The notes below the pieces were generated by a model. That model was not told the origin of the DNA. It worked only from the letters and a program-made list of their open reading frames with translations, and did no database searches. Below, one piece after another: positions 1 through 14,844 of a DNA stretch of 24,455 nucleotides (its first letter is position 1; each line of letters begins with the position of its first letter). The translations under genes were made by a program, and so were the position numbers. The stretch comes from a virus. Taxonomy: Duplodnaviria > Heunggongvirae > Uroviricota > Caudoviricetes. The stretch lies in IMG/VR virus record IMGVR_UViG_2778261278_000008. The stretch is one strand, 5' to 3'.

Positions 1-1002
1 TTACCCTCTATTATCAAAAGGGTTCAATTCAACAGCAGCCTCTAAATGACCTGGAGCAAAATGCGCATAACGCATAGTCATTTTTATATCGCTATGCCCC
101 AGTATTTTTTGCAACACAAGAATATTTCCGCCCCGCATCATAAAATGACTGGCAAACGTGTGACGTAGCACATGAGTTAATTGCCCATCAGGAAGCTCGA
201 TCTTCGCTCTCTTAATTGCAGCGTCAAAAGCCTCATAACATGGTGAAAATAGCGCTCCTCGTTTTTTAGGAAGCATAGCCTGCAATTGAGGTGAAATAGG
301 TACAGTGCGGTTCTTCTTTCCTTTAGTTTTAACAAATGTGATTCGACCGGGCAGTACTTGAGATTGCTTTAATCCTTCTGCTTCACTCCACCGAGCACCA
401 GTCGCAAGCCCAATACGGACAACAACCCCCAAATCTTTATTCCGTGACTCATCACACGAAATCAGAAGGCGTTCAATCTCATCTACATACAGAAACGCCA
501 GTTCCTTTTCTTCCTCACGAAACTTGCGAATACCAGTCAGAGGGTTTTCACCAGACCACTCCCCAAGGCGCTTCAGTTCGGCAAAAACAGCATGTAGATA
601 TGACTGCTCGCGATTAACGGTTGCTTCACTAAGTTTTTTCTTCCCCTTGGGATTCCATTCTCCTGATAGCCTTCTTTCCCGATAAGTAGCAAACATATTT
701 TTGTCAAACTGAGAAGCAAATGGATCTCCCAGCCTAGAACAAATCGCCTCAAGTTTGACTTTGCGCTCTGCACCAGAGGACAAGGTTTTACCGTACATCT
801 CAAACCAACGAGCAATCAACTCAGAAAGACGAGGACCAGAACCATCTTGAAACTCGTCTCCAACTCTACTATTCATTAAACGGCGCTCATAAGAGAGCGC
901 CTCACTTTTTGTCGCAAACTGTTTACGAATGCGTTTTCCCGATGCCCCGTAGGGATAACATTCGCAAAGCCATTTACCTGATGGAATCTTACGAACCGAC
1001 AT
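1..1002 (-). CDS. int: Tyrosine recombinase, P2-type phage integrase
   Basis: 333-aa ORF. C-terminal catalytic region HVLRHTFASHFMMRGG...LGHSDIKMTMRYAHF is typical of tyrosine recombinases; N-terminal GKRIRKQFATKSEA and the C-terminus resemble P2 Int as recalled. Lies downstream of the repressor on the same strand, as in P2. Confidence 0.92.
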   Translation of the reverse strand: MSVRKIPSGKWLCECYPYGASGKRIRKQFATKSEALSYERRLMNSRVGDEFQDGSGPRLSELIARWFEMYGKTLSSGAERKVKLEAICSRLGDPFASQFDKNMFATYRERRLSGEWNPKGKKKLSEATVNREQSYLHAVFAELKRLGEWSGENPLTGIRKFREEEKELAFLYVDEIERLLISCDESRNKDLGVVVRIGLATGARWSEAEGLKQSQVLPGRITFVKTKGKKNRTVPISPQLQAMLPKKRGALFSPCYEAFDAAIKRAKIELPDGQLTHVLRHTFASHFMMRGGNILVLQKILGHSDIKMTMRYAHFAPGHLEAAVELNPFDNRG

Positions 1003-1007
1003 TTTAG

Positions 1008-1355
1008 TTACTTATCACATAAATCAAATGCAGCCTTAGTGACATCCCCCAGATTCTTTTTTAACCCTGGGGCGGCATCATTATCTAGCCAAAATGGATT
1101 ATTGTTATCTAACGGTAACGCACCAAATGTTTTACCTTTTATTCGAGCCAAACCTGTAAGCGCATATAACTTATTATCATCAAAATTCATCACATAAGGA
1201 TTACCATCAAGACACTGTAATTGAACCTCATCAGTATTAAATGGCCATACCCCATTGAAACTCTCACGTTCAATAGTTTTAAAAGGCATTGCGACGGCAG
1301 AAAAAGAAAACATAAATAAAAAAGTAACTAATAGTTGAATCTTTTTTACTTTCAT
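1008..1355 (-). CDS. Small secreted protein of unknown function (cargo gene between repressor and int)
   Basis: 115-aa ORF with Sec-type signal peptide (MKVKKIQLLVTFLFMFSFSAVA) and two Cys in the mature part. GAGGT RBS about 6 nt upstream. AT-rich coding sequence. Confidence 0.6.
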   Translation of the reverse strand: MKVKKIQLLVTFLFMFSFSAVAMPFKTIERESFNGVWPFNTDEVQLQCLDGNPYVMNFDDNKLYALTGLARIKGKTFGALPLDNNNPFWLDNDAAPGLKKNLGDVTKAAFDLCDK

Positions 1356-1384: not shown

Positions 1385-2035
1385 TTACAAATTAAAAAAC
1401 ATCCTAGAAATGGCACCGCCTACCAAAACCCCTACGCAGATAAAGAATATTATTTCTTTTGGATAAAGTCGGATTAATTCTGAAGCACGAAGTCGGACTT
1501 CTGGTAAGGTCGAATTCTCTGTGTTGCTTGATACCGATTGTTGCTCTAACCACGACAATGCAGACTGTAACTGAGAACGAGTAAGATCGTTTAAACGTCC
1601 TGTACCGAAATTGATATGGCAATACCGCAGAAGTTTTTGTCGAAGTCCACAGTCTTCACTGTTACGTAGTAATAAACTTACAAGAGTCTTACAGGCATCA
1701 TGATCTTTACATCGCTCAAGCATTGCATGCAGAAAACTCTCCGCTGTTTTATATTGATTTACTGTCATATCATCAATACCAGCTACACCAATCTCCGCAT
1801 GTACTTTTTGCCAAATAATAAACGCTTCAGTATTGCTAGCTTCTGCAATAGCAGCAACCAAACTATTTAGCTCCTTACGCTGAGCCTTAAGCAAAGGGCG
1901 ATCGTCATCATCATTATTCGAAGGGATTGCGATATTGACGATATGAGAACCATCATATCGATCTATCTGAATATTCTTTTCGTGAAAATCACGCCCAGCA
2001 ACGCGATTGTTTGAACCGTTTGAGTTGACGGCCAT
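1385..2035 (-). CDS. Hypothetical protein with C-terminal transmembrane anchor; N-terminus repeats the repressor C-terminal motif
   Basis: 216-aa ORF with strong RBS GGGAGG before the ATG. C-terminal hydrophobic helix IIFFICVGVLVGGAISRMFF. N-terminal SNGSNNRVAGRDFHE matches the repressor tail SGGNNRIAGRDYNE. Same frame as the repressor, separated by TGA-TAG-TAG. Confidence 0.6.
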   Translation of the reverse strand: MAVNSNGSNNRVAGRDFHEKNIQIDRYDGSHIVNIAIPSNNDDDDRPLLKAQRKELNSLVAAIAEASNTEAFIIWQKVHAEIGVAGIDDMTVNQYKTAESFLHAMLERCKDHDACKTLVSLLLRNSEDCGLRQKLLRYCHINFGTGRLNDLTRSQLQSALSWLEQQSVSSNTENSTLPEVRLRASELIRLYPKEIIFFICVGVLVGGAISRMFFNL

Positions 2036-2050
2036 GTCACCTCCCTACTA

Positions 2051-2455
2051 TCACCTACCCTTAGTTTCGTTATAGTCACGACCAGCGATACGGTTATTAC
2101 CACCAGAAATATTTAACTCACGTCCTGATGGCTGAGTTTCCTTTTCACTGACCGCACCTTTTAAAGCCCCGATCACCGCGTTTTTCACATCTAACGAAGC
2201 TGCTCGAAAGCGAGTAATCAACTCCTGCTCATCATCGTTATAAGTTTCAGGTGAGTGAATTCCCAACACAACATATTGAACATCAAGGCCAAAACGAGAC
2301 AGCGCTGCCAAATACGCAGCATCAGGAAAGCTATCTCCTTTCTCATATCTAAGCTGAGTTAGCTTTTTGACTCCACCAATGTCGCTCATAGCAACTTGAC
2401 TAAGCCCCAATCTTTCCCTTTCCTCACGCAACCGCTGACCAATATCATTTTTCAT
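2051..2455 (-). CDS. XRE-family helix-turn-helix immunity repressor (P2 C-like role)
   Basis: 134-aa ORF with N-terminal HTH (QRLREERERLGLSQVAMSDIGGVKKLTQLRYEKG). Divergent from the early operon, upstream of int on the same strand. Confidence 0.8.
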   Translation of the reverse strand: MKNDIGQRLREERERLGLSQVAMSDIGGVKKLTQLRYEKGDSFPDAAYLAALSRFGLDVQYVVLGIHSPETYNDDEQELITRFRAASLDVKNAVIGALKGAVSEKETQPSGRELNISGGNNRIAGRDYNETKGR

Positions 2456-6273: not shown

Positions 6274-9096
6274 ATGACGGCAGAGTACATCAGGGACTGG
6301 CAACAACCGCGCCACGCAGTGGGGCGTGAAGGAACGGGGATCCCCGCTCCTGAATCCGCGCTTTCCTCCTGGCTGGATGCCTACCGGGTAGAGAACGAGC
6401 GCCGCCAGGAAATGGCTGATGCGGCGTTCTCCGCAACGCCGCTGGGCAACCTGATTAATAAAAGCCTGGACGCACAGGAAAAACAGGACAAAACCATCAC
6501 ACTGGCAGGAGACGCCAGAAAACAGGCACGCGGCGCGGTGGATGAAGCCATGGCCTCGCTGCGCCTGCTGCCGTCCTATCTGCGCGATCCGCTTATTCGC
6601 CACCTCTCCTTCCTGCGCAAAAAACAGGAAGCCGATCGCAGGAAAGGCAAAAAGAGCTGGCAGGCGGAACGCTATGCATGCGGAACCCTGCGCAAAATAT
6701 TCGAACGTCTGGATCGCACTGACGGACGCTGGCTGACACCGGGTTATCGCTCCCTTGCCGGACGCGAACGCCTGGATGATTTGCTTTACCTGCCGCAGCT
6801 CAACAAACGCCAGATACAGACGCTGGCCACCATGACGGCGGCGATGTTCAGCAGCACCTTCGAAAAACTCTGCGATGGCTTTGGCGCGACTAATGGTGAA
6901 CTAACCATGGATGTAACGCTGAAGGCGTATCAGATGCTGGCCCGCATGGCGTTACACCTGCACGCCATGCCTCCACATTATGACGCACTGACAACAGACA
7001 AAGACCGGAGGAACGAACCGGACACGGAGCTGCTGCCGGGCGCAATCCTTCGCCTGACCTGTGCGGAATGGTGGAAACGCAAACTGTGGCTGGTACGTTG
7101 CGAGTGGAGAGAAGAACAACTCCGCGCCGCCTGTCTGGTTTCCAGAAAAACATCGCCCTATCTGAGCCAGGACGCGTTAAGCGAGTTTCGCGCACAGCGC
7201 GAGAAAACACGCGATTTCCTGAAAAGTTTCATGCTGGAAAACGAAGACGGGTTCACGATTGATCTCGAGACAGTGTATTACGCGGGAGTAAGTAACCCGG
7301 TTCACCGTAAGGCAGAAATGATGGCCACCATGAAGGGACTGGAACTTCTGGCCGAAGCCCGTGGCGACAGAGCGGTGTTTCTGACTGTCACCTGCCCGTC
7401 AAAATACCACGCAACAACGGAGAACGGTCATCCGAACCCCAAATGGAACGGGGCCACCATGCGCGACTCCAGCGATTACCTGGTTAACACGTTTTTTGCG
7501 GCGGTCCGCAAAAAACTGAACCGCGACGGCCTGCGCTGGTATGGCATCCGCACGGTGGAGCCTCACCATGACGGCACCGTGCACTGGCATATGATGGTCT
7601 TTGCTCATCCGGAAGAAATCGACAGCATCGTGGCCATCACCCGCGATATTGCCATTCAGGAAGACCGCCACGAGCTGGGCAATGATATTACTCCGCGCTT
7701 TAAGGTGGAGTATGTCGACGGCTCAAAAGGCACACCAACCAGCTATATCGCGACCTACATCGGAAAAAACCTGGACAGCCGCGCCATGGATGGCATCGAC
7801 CCGAAAACGGGCAAACCACGCGTTGACTACGAAACCGGAAAATCAATGGCCGAGAGCGTGGAGCGCGCCATCGGTTGGGCACGCCTTCACCGGGTCCGCC
7901 AGTTCCAGTTCTTTGGCATCCCCTCCCGTCAGGTGTGGCGTGAACTCCGCCGCCTTGCCAGCCAGATGGCACGCAACCCGGAAGGCCCGCAACGGCTGAA
8001 GGATGACGCAATGGATGCGGTACTCGCTGCCGCTGATGCCGGATGTTTTGCCACCTACATAGAGAAACAGGGCGGCGTACTTGTTCCACGCAAAGACTAC
8101 CTGATTCGCACCGCCTACGACCTCGCCGATGAGCTGAACGATTACGGCGAACAGAGCGTACAGATTTACGGGATCTGGTCACCACTCATCGGGGAATCCT
8201 CCCGTGTATGCACGCATCCGGATAACTGGAAGCTGGTAAGACGCAAACCGGAAGCGGAAGACAGCGCCCGCGAAAATGGTTTTGACCTTCAGGGCGGCCC
8301 TGCCGCCCCTTGGACTCGTGGCAATAACTGTCCCCGTGTACAGGAAACAGACAACAACGGGACAGAACAGCCGGAAGAACGGCCAGCACCGTGGCCGCAG
8401 CTCCCTGACGGCGTTGAAGTGAACGAATGGATGCATTCACTGAAACGGCACGAACGCCGGGCGCTGATGCGTTCGCTGCGTGACAAACAGGCAAAAAACA
8501 GCAGTGATGAAATGCAGAGCTGGACACAGAGCCGCAAACAGCAGCGGCCTTTGCCTGATAACCACGAATTACTCGCTAAAGAATGGCGGGAGTCTGCTGA
8601 ATCTCTCGGCCTGCATATCGGTGAACAGCAGATGCAGCACCTGTTACGGGGCGGCAGTCTGTACGTTGACGGCAGCATCATTGCACCGCAGGGATTTGAA
8701 ATTGTACGCAAACCGGATACCCGACCGGACAGCCGGATCACGCAGCTCTGGCAGCGCCTGAGCCGTAACCACGGCGTAAGCAGTACGGAGATCCGCCATA
8801 ACCCGGTCGCCAGCTATCTGGAACAGCTGGGGGCATCAGACCCCGAAGCCGCCGCACGCCTGGCATCCACACTTCAGCAGGACCAGAACACCATGAAAAC
8901 ACCCGTTACCGTGCTTTCTGACATGCTGCGCGCCATCCGCGACGCAGAGCACGCACAGAGAATCAGTGAAACTACTGAACGCGCCCGCCGCAAAGCAGAC
9001 CTGCTGCGGGGTGGCCTGACCAGTGGAAACAAAAAACAGACAGAAACGGGATTCACAAATCCCGTAAATGAGCAAAAAACGCGCCGCGATATATGA
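6274..9096 (+). CDS. A: Rolling-circle replication initiator endonuclease (P2 gpA family, HUH superfamily)
   Basis: 940-aa ORF with HUH motif (GTVHWHMMVF) and a Y-x3-Y catalytic tyrosine pair (SYIATYIGKNLD) downstream, as in P2/186 A proteins. Located after the early small ORFs as in P2. Confidence 0.9.
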   Translation: MTAEYIRDWQQPRHAVGREGTGIPAPESALSSWLDAYRVENERRQEMADAAFSATPLGNLINKSLDAQEKQDKTITLAGDARKQARGAVDEAMASLRLLPSYLRDPLIRHLSFLRKKQEADRRKGKKSWQAERYACGTLRKIFERLDRTDGRWLTPGYRSLAGRERLDDLLYLPQLNKRQIQTLATMTAAMFSSTFEKLCDGFGATNGELTMDVTLKAYQMLARMALHLHAMPPHYDALTTDKDRRNEPDTELLPGAILRLTCAEWWKRKLWLVRCEWREEQLRAACLVSRKTSPYLSQDALSEFRAQREKTRDFLKSFMLENEDGFTIDLETVYYAGVSNPVHRKAEMMATMKGLELLAEARGDRAVFLTVTCPSKYHATTENGHPNPKWNGATMRDSSDYLVNTFFAAVRKKLNRDGLRWYGIRTVEPHHDGTVHWHMMVFAHPEEIDSIVAITRDIAIQEDRHELGNDITPRFKVEYVDGSKGTPTSYIATYIGKNLDSRAMDGIDPKTGKPRVDYETGKSMAESVERAIGWARLHRVRQFQFFGIPSRQVWRELRRLASQMARNPEGPQRLKDDAMDAVLAAADAGCFATYIEKQGGVLVPRKDYLIRTAYDLADELNDYGEQSVQIYGIWSPLIGESSRVCTHPDNWKLVRRKPEAEDSARENGFDLQGGPAAPWTRGNNCPRVQETDNNGTEQPEERPAPWPQLPDGVEVNEWMHSLKRHERRALMRSLRDKQAKNSSDEMQSWTQSRKQQRPLPDNHELLAKEWRESAESLGLHIGEQQMQHLLRGGSLYVDGSIIAPQGFEIVRKPDTRPDSRITQLWQRLSRNHGVSSTEIRHNPVASYLEQLGASDPEAAARLASTLQQDQNTMKTPVTVLSDMLRAIRDAEHAQRISETTERARRKADLLRGGLTSGNKKQTETGFTNPVNEQKTRRDI

Positions 9097-9172: not shown

Positions 9173-10132
9173 ATGAAAATTTGTATCGATGACGGCTCCA
9201 CCAACATCAAGCTGGCATGGACTGAGAACGGCGAACGCCGCAACGCCATCAGCCCGAACAGCTTCAAGTCGGAATGGTCTGCGCCGTTCGGTGGCACGCA
9301 GCCCGCGAACTACATGCTTGATGGCGTGCGCTATGGTTTTGATCCGGTCAGTGATCGCTTTGTCCAGACGACCGACACGCAATACCAGTACAGCGATGTG
9401 AATGTCATTGCCATTCATCACGCGCTGGTCAAATCAGGCATCACACCACAGGAAGTGGATGTGGTTGTCACCCTGCCACTGAGCGAATATTTCGACACAA
9501 ACGCACAGCCGGACATGGCCAACATCAACCGCAAAAAAGCAAACGTCATGCGCCCGGTGGCGTGCCAGAACGGAAAAGCATTCACTATCCGTAACGTACG
9601 AGTTATGCCTGAATCCATTCCGGCTGGTTTTAAAGCACTGGCTGACATGAGTCCGTTTGAATCCCTGCTGATTGTGGATTTAGGCGGAACCACGCTGGAT
9701 GTGGCAAAGGTTCAGGGACAACTGGCAGGTATCAGCCAGGTGTTTTGCGATCCACACGTAGGCGTTTCCCTGATGGCCGATGCCGTACTGTCGGTGATGG
9801 CCACTAACGGTATGCGTACCAGTCACCACATCGCCAATACCATTATCGAACATCGCCATGATGAAGCCTGGCTGCGCCAGCACATCCACAATGACGCGCA
9901 TTACGCCAGCCTGATGGCGGTTATTCGTGAAAAGGAAGAAACACTGAAACAACGCGTGATCCGCGCGCTGGCGGTTTTTTCGGGTTACGGGCGGGTGATG
10001 GTTGTCGGTGGCGGGGCGGAGATTGTGGCACCCGCTATCCGCGAAGCCTGCGGAGTTAATGCGACTTTCATCGCGGACGGGGTGCCACAGTTTGCTCTGG
10101 TTAATGGGCTGTACGCAATGGACAAGGAGTAA
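9173..10132 (+). CDS. parM: Actin-like segregation ATPase, ParM/StbA family
   Basis: 319-aa ORF with actin-fold motifs: phosphate-1 ICIDDGSTNIKL, phosphate-2 LIVDLGGTTLD, adenosine VVGGGAEIV. N-terminus closely resembles R1 plasmid ParM as recalled (MLVFIDDGSTNIKLQW...ISPNSFK..EW). RBS AAGGAAAA. Confidence 0.85.
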   Translation: MKICIDDGSTNIKLAWTENGERRNAISPNSFKSEWSAPFGGTQPANYMLDGVRYGFDPVSDRFVQTTDTQYQYSDVNVIAIHHALVKSGITPQEVDVVVTLPLSEYFDTNAQPDMANINRKKANVMRPVACQNGKAFTIRNVRVMPESIPAGFKALADMSPFESLLIVDLGGTTLDVAKVQGQLAGISQVFCDPHVGVSLMADAVLSVMATNGMRTSHHIANTIIEHRHDEAWLRQHIHNDAHYASLMAVIREKEETLKQRVIRALAVFSGYGRVMVVGGGAEIVAPAIREACGVNATFIADGVPQFALVNGLYAMDKE

Positions 10133-10136
10133 ACCA

Positions 10137-10448
10137 ATGACGACACCAACCAGACGGATAAGTTTCTATCTGAAGCCCGCCGCCGTCAAGAACGAAGGCG
10201 AAGCATGCGCCTGGCTGGACAGCCTTACACCAGAAGCCCGCAAAAGTGGTCAACGCGTGGCTTTTCTGGCCGGGCTGGCACTACTGAAAATGAATCCGGC
10301 AGAGGCTTACCGACTGGCTGCATGGGCTGACGATGAAGCGTTATCCCTGACGCAAACCAGGACAGAACGCCTCCTGTCACAGCCAGTACCAACCGCACAG
10401 ATAACCAGTCAGATGGCCGGAAATATCAGGGCGTTATTTCCTGAATAA
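10137..10448 (+). CDS. parR: ParR/StbB-like ribbon-helix-helix centromere-binding protein
   Basis: 103-aa ORF starting 5 nt after the parM stop, with AAGGAG RBS. RRISFYLKP...LDSLTPEARKSGQRVAFLAGLAL...NIRALFPE parallels R1 ParR (RRTIAFKLNP...LDSIPQGERSRLNRAALTAGLAL...ILRSLFPKE) as recalled. The ORF-track start at 10002 is an upstream in-frame extension overlapping parM. Confidence 0.75.
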   Translation: MTTPTRRISFYLKPAAVKNEGEACAWLDSLTPEARKSGQRVAFLAGLALLKMNPAEAYRLAAWADDEALSLTQTRTERLLSQPVPTAQITSQMAGNIRALFPE

Positions 10449-10475: not shown

Positions 10476-10511
10476 TCTCCATCTCAGAACATAAACAAGA
10501 AGAGCGACTTA

Positions 10512-10895
10512 ATGAGCAAAATCAACTATCAGGCATTACGTGAACGTTATTCACCTGCACCAGTACCAAAATGCCCTATTTGCGGCGAAGAAATGTCAAT
10601 TCAGCGAATATCTGGAGCACAGGTTGTTTATGGCTGCTCCGGTTATGGTGATGATGGAGATTTCAAAATTGGTCGAACTCTTGCCGACGAACATTATGAA
10701 AAATCACGCGTAACAGTGTTGGATGTCGGGGATCCTGAAGTATTGGCGCTACTTGATTGGCTGGAAACCAAAGACAACCGAATCGCTGAACTGGAAAAAA
10801 TCGCCACTGACTATGCACTTAAATTCCAGAAAGCACAGGACGCATTAAAGTACGCCGCTTTGCTGCATAGCAGGACAGCGCAGCTACAAGACTAA
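10512..10895 (+). CDS. Hypothetical protein with CPxCG zinc-ribbon-like motif and C-terminal coiled-coil-like segment
   Basis: 127-aa ORF; KCPICGEEMS...YGCSGYG (3 Cys) and heptad-like C-terminus (IAELEKIATDYALKFQKAQDALKYAALL). Same strand as parMR, 63 bp downstream. Confidence 0.55.
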   Translation: MSKINYQALRERYSPAPVPKCPICGEEMSIQRISGAQVVYGCSGYGDDGDFKIGRTLADEHYEKSRVTVLDVGDPEVLALLDWLETKDNRIAELEKIATDYALKFQKAQDALKYAALLHSRTAQLQD

Positions 10896-10985
10896 CTTAA
10901 AGCGGAAGATTAATACATGGTGGGTCGGGGTAATTTGTTTTTATCCCGACAAATAAACAAAAAAGTGGACTATCTCTGTAGTATC

Positions 10986-11516
10986 TTATTCAGCATCGTC
11001 TCGTGCAGTCTGTGCATACGTCACAACAACGCCCAATGCATTAGTTTTCTTTTCAACATAGATAATATTGTCATATTCATAGTTACCATACGGATAGCAA
11101 ATAAGAATATTTTTATGCAGATCGGGATCATCAACAAACGCTCCGGAACAGCTTCTTGAACTACCGGATGTATACTCATACGGTGCAACATATGATGATG
11201 TTACTCCTGGTAAAAAATAAGTCACCATCATAAGAGGGATAATCAGGAATATCCCTGTAAGAATGCAAGAGCCAGCATAAACCTTCAGGTATTCCGACAG
11301 TCCTTTCCAGCCACTTTGCTTCACTACCCCCCTCTTCACCAGAAACAAGGAGAAGAAAAAGGACATACCCATACTACACAAGATGTAATAATTGGATATA
11401 CGCGAATTAAGATATGTAATCCTGTAGATATCTGCCCTCCACCAGTAAAAGAGGAAAATAATCCCTAGCACTGAAACAGTCATGCAAATCAAATAAGGAT
11501 ATGAATCTTTCTTCAT
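10986..11516 (-). CDS. AT-rich cargo gene encoding a 3-TM membrane protein with a C-terminal extracytoplasmic-type domain
   Basis: 176-aa ORF on the opposite strand to its neighbours. Three hydrophobic helices (YLICMTVSVLGIIFLFYWW; YYILCSMGMSFFFSLFLV; CILTGIFLIIPLMMVTYFL) followed by a Cys/Tyr-rich about 70-aa tail. Visibly lower GC than the flanking phage genes (by eye, not computed). Confidence 0.6.
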   Translation of the reverse strand: MKKDSYPYLICMTVSVLGIIFLFYWWRADIYRITYLNSRISNYYILCSMGMSFFFSLFLVKRGVVKQSGWKGLSEYLKVYAGSCILTGIFLIIPLMMVTYFLPGVTSSYVAPYEYTSGSSRSCSGAFVDDPDLHKNILICYPYGNYEYDNIIYVEKKTNALGVVVTYAQTARDDAE

Positions 11517-12046
11517 GTCTTGCGCTCATTAAAATTTCCCTGCTACGAACAAATTTACCATCCGTTTTTTGCGCAGAAAACAGCACGATGCACACTGCAC
11601 GATAGTGCACAAATTTGCACAATTTTTTTGAACGACTTTTTACCCTTCCGGCCCGCATGGCGGCTGGATCCGTCAAGGATCCGTGCGTGCACAAAAAAAC
11701 GCGTTTTTTCTGCGCGCAGGTGACGGGGGAACAGCCCGCGTTTCAGGGGGTAAATAGCATCCCCTGAACGATGTCGCAGCGACACAACAGAATGGCTGTA
11801 TTTCTCACGCTGAGCGTGAAGAATACGTGAGGGATTCTGATTTGATGGGGTGAAAGGTAAGGCCGTCAAAATCGCACTGAGGCGGCGAGAACATGCAGTC
11901 AACGCGGTGGGATTGCGTAAGAGTCTGACCGCCGATGATGGCAATAAGCAGAAAAGCGTCGTGAAATTATCTGACTGATACAGGAGCTGGAGAGTCGGGG
12001 CATAAATTTTTTATGCCCCGGCGAAGCAGCAGACAAGCGAAGCGCG
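11517..12046. other. 530-bp noncoding region between the cargo slot and portal gene Q; expected location of the cos/packaging site by synteny
   Basis: No convincing ORF. Contains TGCAC direct repeats (11589-11620), GGATCCGT x2 (11666-11684), palindrome A6-CGCG-T6 (11694-11709), inverted repeat TTCAGGGG/CCCCTGAA (11742-11768) and a 10-bp-stem hairpin (11997-12019). Cos itself not identified. Confidence 0.4.
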
Positions 12047-13093
12047 TCAGGATGTGGGCTGGGTGTCTAACAGTGCGTAAGGGTTAAAGCGGATCACCTC
12101 TTCGCCAAGCCAGTCATTGATGTGCTTCATGGCCTCCATGACTGGCATCAGCTCGTTAATTGCGTAAACCCGCGCGGCCTTCTCCACATCACCAAACGCA
12201 CTTTTTTCGCCCGGCATCGCCCCCATCAGTTGCGGCGGAACGCGGTGTGCAGCCAGCACATCATCACGGGATGCCGCCTTAACATTCATGAACTCATCTT
12301 TTGCGGTGATCTGCTGGAACGGCAAAATTTGCACCCCCTCTTTGCCCCCGTTGGGCGCATGAATGAGCACGTTTTTAAACGCACCACCACCACGCGCACC
12401 CTGTAGCGTTTCTTTCAGGGAGTCCATGCTTTCGCGGTTTACCTGCGCTGCACCGATGTAGATGATGCACCCGGCGTGGGATCCGTTGTCGTAATACAGT
12501 TTTCTGAACATGTCCGCCGAATGAGACAGGCTGGCCGAGAGTAATGCGCCGAGATATTCCGGCATGCCGTAGATTTCCTGGTTAATGTCAGGATTCATCA
12601 GGTGGCACACTTTGCCTGGGCGAAACTGAAACGCGTCCTTGCCATCCTGCACATACCACCATGATTCAAGATCGCTTCCGCGTCGTATGTATTTCGCCAG
12701 GGCGTGCCGTAATTTAAGCGGTTCGCCGAGCATATTGCTTCGAAGCTCAAGGAATGCGTTACCGAACACAAACCAGTCCAGCGCCAGCGCCGAGAAATCC
12801 TGCCGGGAAAGCAGCGGGTGCGGAATATAGCAACCGAGCAATACATTGCGCTTAAAGTAAAGCGCAGACTGATGCCAGGACGTTTGCCGGGCAGCTCTTG
12901 CCAGACCGTACCAGTCCACCGGGGTTTCATACCACCGCCCGTTATCAGCACAGTACATATTGTCCAGCAGGTCATGCCCGGTCAGGCGATAAGGACCATC
13001 AAATGTGAATGCACTGAGCGATGATTCTTTCCTGAGCGCATCAGCGAGATCAATGCGTGAACTCATGCGCACTTTTTTATTTTTTCTGCTCAT
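12047..13093 (-). CDS. Q: Phage portal protein (P2 gpQ family)
   Basis: 348-aa ORF, length and position match P2 Q (about 344 aa as recalled). Start overlaps the terminase stop by 1 nt. Confidence 0.9.
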   Translation of the reverse strand: MSRKNKKVRMSSRIDLADALRKESSLSAFTFDGPYRLTGHDLLDNMYCADNGRWYETPVDWYGLARAARQTSWHQSALYFKRNVLLGCYIPHPLLSRQDFSALALDWFVFGNAFLELRSNMLGEPLKLRHALAKYIRRGSDLESWWYVQDGKDAFQFRPGKVCHLMNPDINQEIYGMPEYLGALLSASLSHSADMFRKLYYDNGSHAGCIIYIGAAQVNRESMDSLKETLQGARGGGAFKNVLIHAPNGGKEGVQILPFQQITAKDEFMNVKAASRDDVLAAHRVPPQLMGAMPGEKSAFGDVEKAARVYAINELMPVMEAMKHINDWLGEEVIRFNPYALLDTQPTS

Positions 13094-14844
13094 CAGAACT
13101 CCATAACCGTGAAACGCTCGTTTTCTCCTTCGCCGCCAATCGGTTCGTTAATGACAGCAAGCATGGTCGCCCACGCAAGGTCGCCGTGGCTGATCCCCCT
13201 CGCGCGGTCCGTTTCGTAAGTGATAAAGCCGCCCGGTGTTTTCACCTTACGCACGGCGTTAAAGGCCGCGACCAGTTCGCGTTCGGCGCGATCGTATTCC
13301 CACCGCCCGGCACGCATTATTTGCAGCATTTTCAGTACCAGCGACCGTTTTGATGACAGCGTGAAGGTGTACGGAATAGCAGCAGGGAAAAACCGTTTCA
13401 CTATCTGATAAACAGCCTCCCCGTTCCCGCCCGTCACATCAATGCCGATGTGTTCCACGTTGTAGCGACACGTGAACTCTTCAATGACTCTGGCCTGTTC
13501 TTCAAACTCCAGCCCCTGAACGCGTCGCGTCTCCACCGTTCGAAAACGGCCACCAGGAACAGCCGGAGGAACCACCACGGACACAGCGCCGCTGTCGCCG
13601 TTGCCACTGCTGCCGTTTGCGTCATACCCAATCCATACCGGACGATTCCCCATCGGGCGGGGAGCAAAAGGTTTCCAGTCTTTCCAGTCGTCGTATCCGT
13701 CAACACCGCAGCCAATCAGGATATTCAGGTTAAATGCCGATTCCCCTTCGCGGACAAACTCACACATATAGAGATTGAGGAACTCGTCTTCGGTGTTTTC
13801 ATCACGAATTTCGTCGATATCGGTGTGTTTCCAGCCGTGTTTAACCACATCTTCCAGCGTGACAATTTGCCGCCACGTCCGGTCAGGGCAGATAAGCCCG
13901 TTATGCAGCGTTTTCCAGTCCACAGAAAAACGCTGGCGTTTATGCGAGGCCTTTTTCTCGTTCCAGCGGTCGCCGTTCCAGTAGGCGTATGCCTCGTGCG
14001 TTTCGGTGGATGGCGTGGAGAAGTAGGTGCGCCGCAGTCCGCTGAGGGTTGCCATAGCGCCAGCCACCTTGCGCAGTTCAGCAAAGCGACTGACCCAGAA
14101 AAATTCATCAAAATAAAAATTGCCCGTATAGGACTGTGCCGACGCAGCAGAAGTGCCGAGAAAATGCAGCTCTGCGCCGTTGGAGAGGATGATTTTATCG
14201 CCCCCTTTCAGCTCCACATCAACTTCAGCCGCGGCCTTCTGAATAATGCTTTTAAACTGGAACGCCTGACGACGCGACGCAGACAAAAAAATCTGGTTAC
14301 GCTGGTAAGGTTGCGCCACATCGTCACGCAGCGCCATCAGCAGCGCTTCCTGTGCAAAATACCAGGTCGCCCCAATCTGTCGGGATTTCAGGATCATCCT
14401 GTTACGTATCCCGGCTTCCCTGCAAAGGGTCAGGGAGTCAAACCAGCCCCGCTGATGCCACTCCAGCCTGCTGATGATTTTTTCCCGCAGTGCGGCAATC
14501 TGTTCCGGCGTGAAATGATTTTTGAGTTTTTTCGCCCGGCCTTTCTTTCCTGTGACCGTCGCATCCGGCTGGCCATCATGCAGTTTTTTAAGCTGCCGGG
14601 TCAGCAGGTCTATTTCCTTAAAGTCACCACCTGTTTTATTCTGTTTTTCAGTAAGCTGGATGAGGCGCGCATCGATGGACTGCGTGACACGCTGCACGGG
14701 TGGCGTTTCATCCCACTGGTCACGTTTTTTCCACGCATAAATCGTGTTCGGGTTTATTCCCATCAGACGTGATATTTCTGCGGGCGGATAACCCTGCCAG
14801 TAAAGTTGCCGCGCACGCTGGCGCACAAAAGCGTCCTGAATCAT
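13093..14844 (-). CDS. P: Terminase large (ATPase) subunit (P2 gpP family)
   Basis: 583-aa ORF; N-terminal RQRARQLYWQGYPPAEISRLMGINPNTIYAW resembles P2 P. Divergent from O as in P2. Confidence 0.9.
   Translation of the reverse strand: MIQDAFVRQRARQLYWQGYPPAEISRLMGINPNTIYAWKKRDQWDETPPVQRVTQSIDARLIQLTEKQNKTGGDFKEIDLLTRQLKKLHDGQPDATVTGKKGRAKKLKNHFTPEQIAALREKIISRLEWHQRGWFDSLTLCREAGIRNRMILKSRQIGATWYFAQEALLMALRDDVAQPYQRNQIFLSASRRQAFQFKSIIQKAAAEVDVELKGGDKIILSNGAELHFLGTSAASAQSYTGNFYFDEFFWVSRFAELRKVAGAMATLSGLRRTYFSTPSTETHEAYAYWNGDRWNEKKASHKRQRFSVDWKTLHNGLICPDRTWRQIVTLEDVVKHGWKHTDIDEIRDENTEDEFLNLYMCEFVREGESAFNLNILIGCGVDGYDDWKDWKPFAPRPMGNRPVWIGYDANGSSGNGDSGAVSVVVPPAVPGGRFRTVETRRVQGLEFEEQARVIEEFTCRYNVEHIGIDVTGGNGEAVYQIVKRFFPAAIPYTFTLSSKRSLVLKMLQIMRAGRWEYDRAERELVAAFNAVRKVKTPGGFITYETDRARGISHGDLAWATMLAVINEPIGGEGENERFTVMEF

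Follow-up and report, generated by a model that had tools for sequence, protein, structure and literature searches.

The 24,455-nt stretch of caudovirus DNA deposited as IMG/VR record IMGVR_UViG_2778261278_000008, hereafter the window, contains on its minus strand a 176-codon open reading frame (ORF) with three hydrophobic segments, here called ORF176. We hold with high confidence that ORF176 is a real, functional and mobile moron that encodes a membrane protein. It is intact, shared with phage 434 and with O157 prophages and common in Escherichia coli, and structural modelling suggests that its product is a membrane-anchored periplasmic barrel; this is the new element of the analysis. Its role is most plausibly a lysogen-expressed protective function at the level of the cell envelope. 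The likeliest specific function would be superinfection exclusion at the entry step, to which we assign a probability of roughly 35-40%.

By its gene content the window is a P2-type E. coli prophage of the P88/Xuanwuvirus kind, and ORF176 lies between the genes for the replication endonuclease gpA and for gpQ, the portal protein. The gpA-gpQ interval, next to cos, is an experimentally supported accessory and defence hotspot of P2-like phages and corresponds to the old/tin slot in P2 (Rousset et al. 2022, PMC9122126). The same slot also carries cargo other than defence genes, including partition systems and the cytolethal distending toxin (PMC9122126). A preliminary description, made from the sequence alone, had noted a minus-strand frame of 176 aa with three hydrophobic helices and its own upstream non-coding region, poorer in G+C than the surrounding phage genes, convergent with the upstream cargo and situated in the cargo slot of a P2-like phage. 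All these points are borne out. The coordinates are exact and the start codon is ATG; hydropathy and AlphaFold2 agree on the helices; 530 nt of non-coding DNA separate the 5' side of the gene from the portal gene; the GC content of ORF176 is 0.388, compared to 0.533 in the window minus positions 10500-11592 and to 0.54-0.575 in gpA, ParM, Q and P; and the convergent neighbour is an ead/Ea22-like ORF on the plus strand that ends at 10895.

Comparison with sibling phages delimits the exchanged DNA. The backbone match to P88 and PhiR44_2 (94.7-97.7%) ends at 10476/10499 and restarts at 11593/11596, and the cargo between these points is wholly different. Both siblings lack ORF176, which is thus extra DNA relative to them. 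The only stretch common to the window and the lambdoid copies is a cassette that includes ORF176 and short flanks on both sides, with 76% DNA identity (blastn against L009, L012 and L013). Lambdoid carriers include phage 434 (L013), where the gene is CPT_434B_36, a 'putative membrane protein', as well as mEp332 and 2B8. The summary of Juhala et al. (2000) given in PMC3594210 describes a moron as an add-on to a phage genome that forms an independent transcription unit. ORF176 fits the structural side of this definition (PMC3594210), with candidate elements for a promoter and a terminator of its own.

The gene, taken as a family, was found in four genomic contexts. P2-like prophages of E. coli and Salmonella have it in the gpA-gpQ hotspot, in each case on the strand of the portal gene. 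In lambdoid prophages at the lambda attachment site it occupies the xis-exo interval, on the strand opposite to the pL operon; this group includes prophage Sp3 of O157:H7 Sakai, where the gene is ECs_0804. A Providencia prophage contains the gene directly between the antiterminator gene Q and the holin gene, on the late-gene strand, and Cedecea neteri has it in a chromosomal islet with no phage genes nearby. The Salmonella, Providencia and Cedecea copies are diverged. The GC content of the ORF is below that of its flanks in five of five contexts examined. With at least 80% of the cassette required, 959 of 5426 complete E. coli genomes (~18%) are carriers, mostly of the lambdoid type (~76% identity), and about 60-75 genomes have the window type. 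ORF176 is not confined to P2-like phages, and most copies reside in lambdoid prophages; the preliminary description placed the gene correctly in the cargo slot, but an argument from the slot alone is weaker than assumed there. The family is small and confined to Enterobacterales. When 1.84 billion representative proteins were searched with the profile, 57 hits were obtained; these are proteins of ~165-200 aa that share the architecture, or fragments of such proteins. A hit of 3074 aa in this search (P0103) was rejected as spurious; its 11 matching stretches are the summed copies of a 22-residue repeat, GATFTQPDADGNITITYPAGTT, without the cysteines.

Two observations on the neighbours of the cassette may be added. 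The ead/Ea22-like ORF of the window ends 3 nt short of the cassette boundary at 10898, which suggests that the recombination event by which the cassette was acquired also clipped the ead/Ea22-like gene. The phage 434B record (OL657227.1, locus 1-1283 of L013) contains fragments of NleC- and NleH-like type III effector genes and of IS1414 just beyond int, a few kb from the ORF176 homologue.

The intactness of the gene requires attention, as both RefSeq records inspected carry the PGAP label 'hypothetical protein, frameshifted' and treat it as a pseudogene; no protein record exists for the window-type copy because of this call. We regard the label as an annotation artefact that originates from an over-extended 200-aa lambdoid reference. 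The commonest relatives, ~80% identical, are deposited as proteins of 200-223 aa whose extra N-termini differ by lineage; the forms of 191-223 aa are explained by upstream read-through. The start MKK/MKN-x-SYPYL is common to all diverged full-length members (from Salmonella, Enterobacter, Klebsiella, Cedecea and others). In-frame TAA and TGA codons are present 4-5 codons upstream of the ORF176 ATG in the window, and Salmonella copies have an in-frame stop 7 codons upstream; over the window and Salmonella copies together the range is 4-8 codons. The lambdoid allele alone lacks an upstream in-frame stop, and gene callers therefore run on through its upstream region. The 200-223-aa entries have N-terminal extensions of 24-47 aa that lack conservation and contain stops in other alleles; these extensions were not accepted as part of the protein. 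The ratio of nonsynonymous to synonymous substitution rates (dN/dS) is 0.115 relative to the lambdoid allele (dS 1.04), 0.145 relative to the Salmonella allele and 0.09-0.17 in all comparisons with unsaturated dS. It is low in the membrane half and the C-terminal half alike, with values of 0.05-0.12 in the predicted periplasmic domain. The conserved start, the upstream stops and the low dN/dS together demonstrate that ORF176 is intact and maintained by purifying selection. With some 60-70 homologous protein clusters and a low dN/dS, the gene is more than a chance reading frame.

Two further observations concern a run of six guanines (G6) within ORF176. In two of eight near-identical copies checked, G7 in place of G6 causes a frameshift, and the other six are intact. 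The G7 copies are in a metagenome scaffold (L026) and in an assembly with many other split genes (L028). Lambdoid and Salmonella alleles do not have the tract. The G7 variants could be products of slip-strand on/off switching or homopolymer sequencing errors; the tract might add such switching to the window-type allele. Shorter gene calls of 112 aa (P0122), which start at a GTG at codon 65 (V65) after the G-rich run, are present on at least 1000 contigs. The full ORF is intact at four of six loci with this call, and the other two have G7. An internal start at V65 was considered and rejected, as the GTG and the G-rich Shine-Dalgarno-like tract are not conserved in lambdoid and some Salmonella alleles; we treat the 112-aa form as a gene-caller artefact and not as a conserved dual-start design. 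Protein-based surveys of the hotspots miss ORF176 systematically through the pseudogene label, the 200-aa over-extension of the lambdoid copies and the 112-aa truncation of the window-type copy.

The protein is predicted to consist of three transmembrane (TM) helices followed by a folded C-terminal domain (C-domain). The hydrophobic segments are ~18-23 residues long, with Kyte-Doolittle means over 19-residue windows of 1.5-2.35. The AlphaFold2 model of the full-length protein, built on an alignment of 10 sequences, has long helices at residues 5-30, 38-61 and 69-101; residues 34-36 form a short strand, and the C-terminal part is a sheet of five strands (predicted local distance difference test, pLDDT, 76). 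The C-domain alone (aa 100-176, 16 sequences) was modelled with pLDDT 90.2 and a predicted template-modelling score (pTM) of 0.77. The preliminary description had mentioned a Cys/Tyr-rich C-terminal tail. The region is indeed rich in tyrosine (9 of 75 residues, aa 102-176), but it contains only two cysteines, and according to the AlphaFold2 model it is a folded beta domain and not a tail.

Only W26, C123, C140 and G162 are invariant across 20 diverse members of the family, so that the two invariant cysteines are both in the C-domain. The mean number of lysines and arginines in these members is 2.0 in the N-terminus (8-10 residues), 4.3 in loop 2 (~16 residues) and 2.5 in loop 1, and the C-domain of the window protein is acidic (5 K+R vs 10 D+E). 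In the AlphaFold2 model the strand of loop 1 (aa 34-36) pairs with the sheet of the C-domain, so that neither can be on the opposite side of the membrane from the other. From the charge pattern, the two cysteines and the position of the loop-1 strand we predict a cytoplasmic N-terminus, a periplasmic loop 1 and C-domain and a probable C123-C140 disulfide bond. The predicted cytoplasmic portions comprise only 8 and ~16-18 residues.

Table. Features of the window and of the ORF176 locus.
Feature	Position	Strand	Remarks
Integrase	1-1002	-	
DUF2511 protein	1008-1355	-	115 aa; in second low-GC patch
216-aa protein	1385-2035	-	no Pfam match
Helix-turn-helix protein, probably repressor	2051-2455	-	
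Replication endonuclease gpA	6274-9096	+	
ParM (StbA)	9173-10132	+	Pfam
ParR/StbB-like	~10137-10448	+	Pfam
Variable cargo segment relative to P88 and PhiR44_2	10500-11592		truncated ead/Ea22-like gene and ORF176 unit
ead/Ea22-like ORF, truncated	10512-10895	+	Pfam Ead_Ea22, E = 3e-29
Mobile cassette	10898-11653	-	ORF176 with 137 nt upstream and 88 nt downstream
Stem-loop GTCGGG...CCCGAC, candidate	10924-10950	-	36 nt past ORF176 stop; RNA fold
ORF176	10986-11516	-	176 aa; ATG start; stop codon inside end coordinate
PGAP frameshifted-pseudogene feature	10986-11561		6187-6762 in L001; 3188-3763 in L002
C-domain, five-strand OB-like beta-barrel, predicted periplasmic	10989-11213	-	aa 102-176
Membrane part	11214-11492	-	hydropathy, charge, AlphaFold2
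TM3	11214-11282	-	aa 79-101
Loop 2, predicted cytoplasmic	11283-11336	-	aa 61-78; K+R = 5
G6 homopolymer	11327-11332	-	codons 62-64 of ORF176
TM2	11337-11390	-	aa 43-60
Loop 1, predicted periplasmic	11391-11438	-	aa 27-42; T34 and L36 conserved
TM1	11439-11492	-	aa 9-26
Candidate extended -10, TGGTAAATT (TG-n-TAAATT)	11552-11560	-	36-44 nt before ATG
Weak -35-like TTTTCT	11575-11580	-	17-nt spacer to candidate -10
Distal upstream region	11593-11653	-	three of four GTGCA motifs
Hairpin CGGGGCATAAA-AAA-TTTATGCCCCG	11996-12020		perfect 11-bp stem; ~27 nt past portal stop
Portal gpQ	12047-13093	-	
Terminase gpP	13093-14844	-	

The only database family matched by ORF176 is PHROG 1416 (E = 1.6e-45, aa 90-175 vs profile positions 2-87 of 90), which has no functional annotation. 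ORF176 is a direct member of this family. Its 90-position profile covers TM3 and the C-domain only and evidently derives from truncated gene calls. Pfam gave nothing at the gathering score (best 16 bits vs a cut-off of 27; no SieB, holin, NfeD or YebO), and neither NCBIfam nor PADLOC gave a match. A sequence profile search of the PDB yielded nothing below E = 0.06. Foldseek against BFVD returned uncharacterised proteins only, with TM-scores of at most 0.32, and the fold search of BFVD and PDB identified no annotated structural neighbour. Homology to a housekeeping membrane protein, which the preliminary description had named as evidence that would speak against its proposal, was searched for and not found.

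In our reading, recombination carries the ORF176 cassette from one accessory slot to another among unrelated temperate phages of Enterobacterales. The product would be inserted in the inner membrane by its three helices, with the N-terminus in the cytoplasm, and would display on the periplasmic face a disulfide-bonded OB-like barrel extended by the strand of loop 1. The barrel could bind the tail-tip, tape-measure or ejection proteins of an incoming phage, or a host entry factor in the inner membrane or periplasm, and such binding would stop formation of the DNA conduit. This mode of action would resemble that of P22 SieA, HK97 gp15 or T4 Imm without relatedness to any of them. The tiny cytoplasmic portions, the strongest conservation in the periplasmic domain and the lack of a partner gene argue for action at the inner membrane or periplasm and not for intracellular sensing. 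Small inner-membrane proteins of prophages, when of this size, are best documented as entry blocks (P22 SieA, HK97 gp15), and entry exclusion is therefore preferred among the envelope functions. The guess of superinfection exclusion or abortive infection in the preliminary description was thus a reasonable one, with the abortive half being less likely.

Several observations weigh against entry exclusion. No homology link of ORF176 to any defence protein was found in PADLOC (0 hits), by hhalign with P22 SieA and the profile of the family (probability 0.3%) or in the BFVD and PDB searches. The topology and the disulfide are predictions, and a scan for consensus sigma-70 promoters at a 9/12 threshold found none for ORF176. 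Since lambdoid prophages, phage 434 among them, have the majority of the copies, the argument from the P2 slot is weakened, and the Providencia copy occupies a late slot on the late-gene strand. The carriers range from myovirus-type (P2-like) and siphovirus-type (lambdoid) prophages to a non-phage islet. To our knowledge, classical exclusion proteins that target the injection machinery of their own carrier do not show such a range. A range of this kind is easier to reconcile with a host factor or a third-party phage as the target, or with an envelope function unrelated to phages, such as toxin immunity. In a stronger version of the exclusion model, ORF176 would found an unrecognised family of exclusion proteins, and the target of the barrel would be either a host entry factor or a conserved translocation step common to many phage types. 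A shared target of this kind would explain the carriage by both prophage types and by the islet, and we consider this version rather unlikely.

Possible, though doubtful, is a protective envelope function not directed at phages. ORF176 could be an orphan immunity or tolerance protein against a toxin that acts in the periplasm, such as a colicin-M/pesticin-type bacteriocin, a peptidoglycan or membrane effector of type VI secretion or contact-dependent inhibition systems, or lysozyme; or it could be a stress or virulence protein of lysogenic conversion. Periplasmic domains with disulfides are typical of membrane-anchored immunity proteins, for example the colicin M immunity protein, and the conserved soluble domain of ORF176 is predicted to be periplasmic with one disulfide. 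Its presence in unrelated phage types and in the islet suggests that the target is not the injection apparatus of one phage. No toxin gene adjoins ORF176 in any of the four contexts, there is no sequence match and no convincing fold match to immunity families, and the slot occupied in the window is enriched in defence systems (PMC9122126). Abortive infection, in which a RexB-, SieB- or pore-like effector would depolarise or permeabilise the inner membrane and kill the infected cell, appears improbable. A single small protein with several TM helices in a defence hotspot would suit such an effector, and TM proteins of defence systems are usually viewed as suicide effectors (PMC9122126). Yet the cassette has one gene and no conserved partner sensor, the 8 and ~16-18 cytoplasmic residues leave little for sensing intracellular phage cues, the periplasmic domain with its dN/dS of 0.05-0.12 is the best conserved part, and neither SieB (Pfam) nor any other abortive-infection family (Pfam, PADLOC) was matched.

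We give very little credence to a lysis or late-function accessory, i.e. a holin- or antiholin-like three-TM protein. The number of helices and the position of the Providencia copy, directly between Q and the holin gene on the late strand, would agree with such a role. The window, Salmonella and the lambdoid E. coli phages all have the gene at a long distance from the lysis genes; the lambdoid copies are opposite to the flanking pL operon and the window copy is convergent with the genes on the gpA side. A folded periplasmic disulfide domain of 75 aa is not a feature of holins, and no holin family of Pfam was matched. A class I holin in particular is a small three-TM protein without a large periplasmic domain whose gene adjoins those for the endolysin and spanins; ORF176 is not next to lysis genes in the window or in most contexts, and it has a folded extramembrane domain. 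Just as improbable is that ORF176 is a decaying pseudogene or a recombination scar beside the truncated ead/Ea22-like gene. The PGAP flag in both records, the true truncation of the neighbour and the G7 frameshift in some copies would be consistent with decay, but the frame of 176 aa is uninterrupted and starts as in all diverged homologues, the 'missing' N-terminus results from read-through of the lambdoid promoter region and is not conserved, purifying selection is strong and six of eight near-identical copies are intact. The pseudogene reading is largely refuted by these data.

The flanks of ORF176 contain candidate signals for its expression; a search for expression data on ECs_0804 and its EDL933 counterpart gave nothing usable. 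The candidate extended -10 element, TG-n-TAAATT, may serve as the promoter. Window, lambdoid and Salmonella P2-like copies all retain it, despite its being non-coding wherever in-frame stops follow. A short upstream ORF, MVNLFVAGKF (11529-11561, minus strand), overlaps this element; a comparable frame, VINFCLEG, is present in the Salmonella copies, and the lambdoid equivalent continues into the main ORF. The short ORF may be a coincidence. Farther upstream, the distal region (11593-11653) is common to the P88 backbone (96.6% identity) and to the upstream region of the lambdoid cassette. The fourth GTGCA motif (11589-11593) straddles its lower edge, and an inverted repeat, GTGCAAATTTGTGCAC (11605-11620), is followed by a T-run on the plus strand in a terminator-like arrangement. 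The role of this region is ambiguous: it could be an operator, a plus-strand terminator or a recombination anchor for cargo exchange.

A scan for canonical terminators on the ORF176 strand found none. The stem-loop downstream of ORF176 has no U-tract. Lambdoid copies retain it, one base pair having changed in a compensatory way from G:C to A:T (two lineages compared); it is a candidate 3'-end or stabiliser hairpin. The late P-Q transcript likely ends at the perfect hairpin past the portal gene, which may insulate ORF176 from this transcript.

Other parts of the window are also of an accessory nature. The partition pair ParM and ParR/StbB-like is located directly 3' of gpA (9173-10448; Pfam E = 1.6e-81 and 5.3e-24). 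About one quarter of P2-like phages have a ParM/ParR-type module, for which plasmid-like maintenance has been suggested (Rousset et al., PMC9122126). The ead/Ea22-like ORF retains an N-terminal zinc-ribbon and is flagged in RefSeq as 'missing C-terminus'. A second patch of low GC content (0.33-0.40) on the minus strand (1008-2035), between the integrase and helix-turn-helix genes, is probably another accessory slot.

The kind of element described here is not surprising; ORF176 is a widespread and overlooked candidate, and the whole unit is only ~0.75 kb long. If it does confer phage exclusion or another envelope protection, it would be among the commonest uncharacterised accessory genes of E. 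coli prophages. It would also be structurally new among inner-membrane exclusion factors in that its effector domain is periplasmic, and it would have a bearing on host range in phage therapy. Should the broad-exclusion version be true, ~18% of E. coli genomes, including O157:H7, as well as phage 434 would possess a broad entry-level defence that databases have missed through its annotation as a pseudogene or a mis-started ORF.

Short NfeD-like proteins such as E. coli YbbJ and Bacillus subtilis YuaF are ~150-175 aa long, with three TM helices at the N-terminus followed by an OB-type barrel, and in gross architecture they are similar to ORF176. The similarity does not extend further: hhalign of YbbJ gave a probability of 0.6%, Pfam NfeD was not matched, and no gene for an SPFH partner (QmcA/stomatin) was found in any ORF176 neighbourhood examined. 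The segment of YbbJ that follows the last hydrophobic stretch is strongly basic, which by the positive-inside rule indicates a cytoplasmic C-domain. The predicted topology of ORF176 is the opposite, and its C-domain, for which a periplasmic location is predicted, is acidic and contains two invariant cysteines.

With old/tin and other gpA-gpQ cargo, ORF176 of the window shares the slot next to cos and the low-GC, exchangeable nature. Old is an ATPase-TOPRIM nuclease (PMC9122126), unlike the membrane protein ORF176, which matches no PADLOC model. HK97 gp15 is an inner-membrane moron product that the prophage expresses and that prevents the injection of genomes (PMC3594210). ORF176 resembles this moron in being extra DNA relative to sibling phages, in its deviant GC content, in being a self-contained unit and in its predicted inner-membrane product. 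The HK97 protein is much smaller, is related to YebO in its N-terminal region, for which ORF176 has no Pfam match, and is encoded inside the tail operon.

The best functional analogy is P22 SieA, a protein of 162-164 aa with three TM helices that resides in the inner membrane, has its own promoter and blocks DNA delivery across the inner membrane (PMC10883804). The analogy concerns architecture only, that is a single prophage gene for a product of ~160-176 aa with three predicted TM helices; the two proteins have no sequence relationship by hhalign, and the motif FxRYPxEAxxFNK of SieA types A-C is absent from ORF176. The conserved C-terminal motif of SieA is predicted to be cytoplasmic, in contrast to the C-domain of ORF176, for which a periplasmic location and a disulfide bond are predicted. 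Finally, SieA is confined to P22-like phages, whereas ORF176 crosses phage families.

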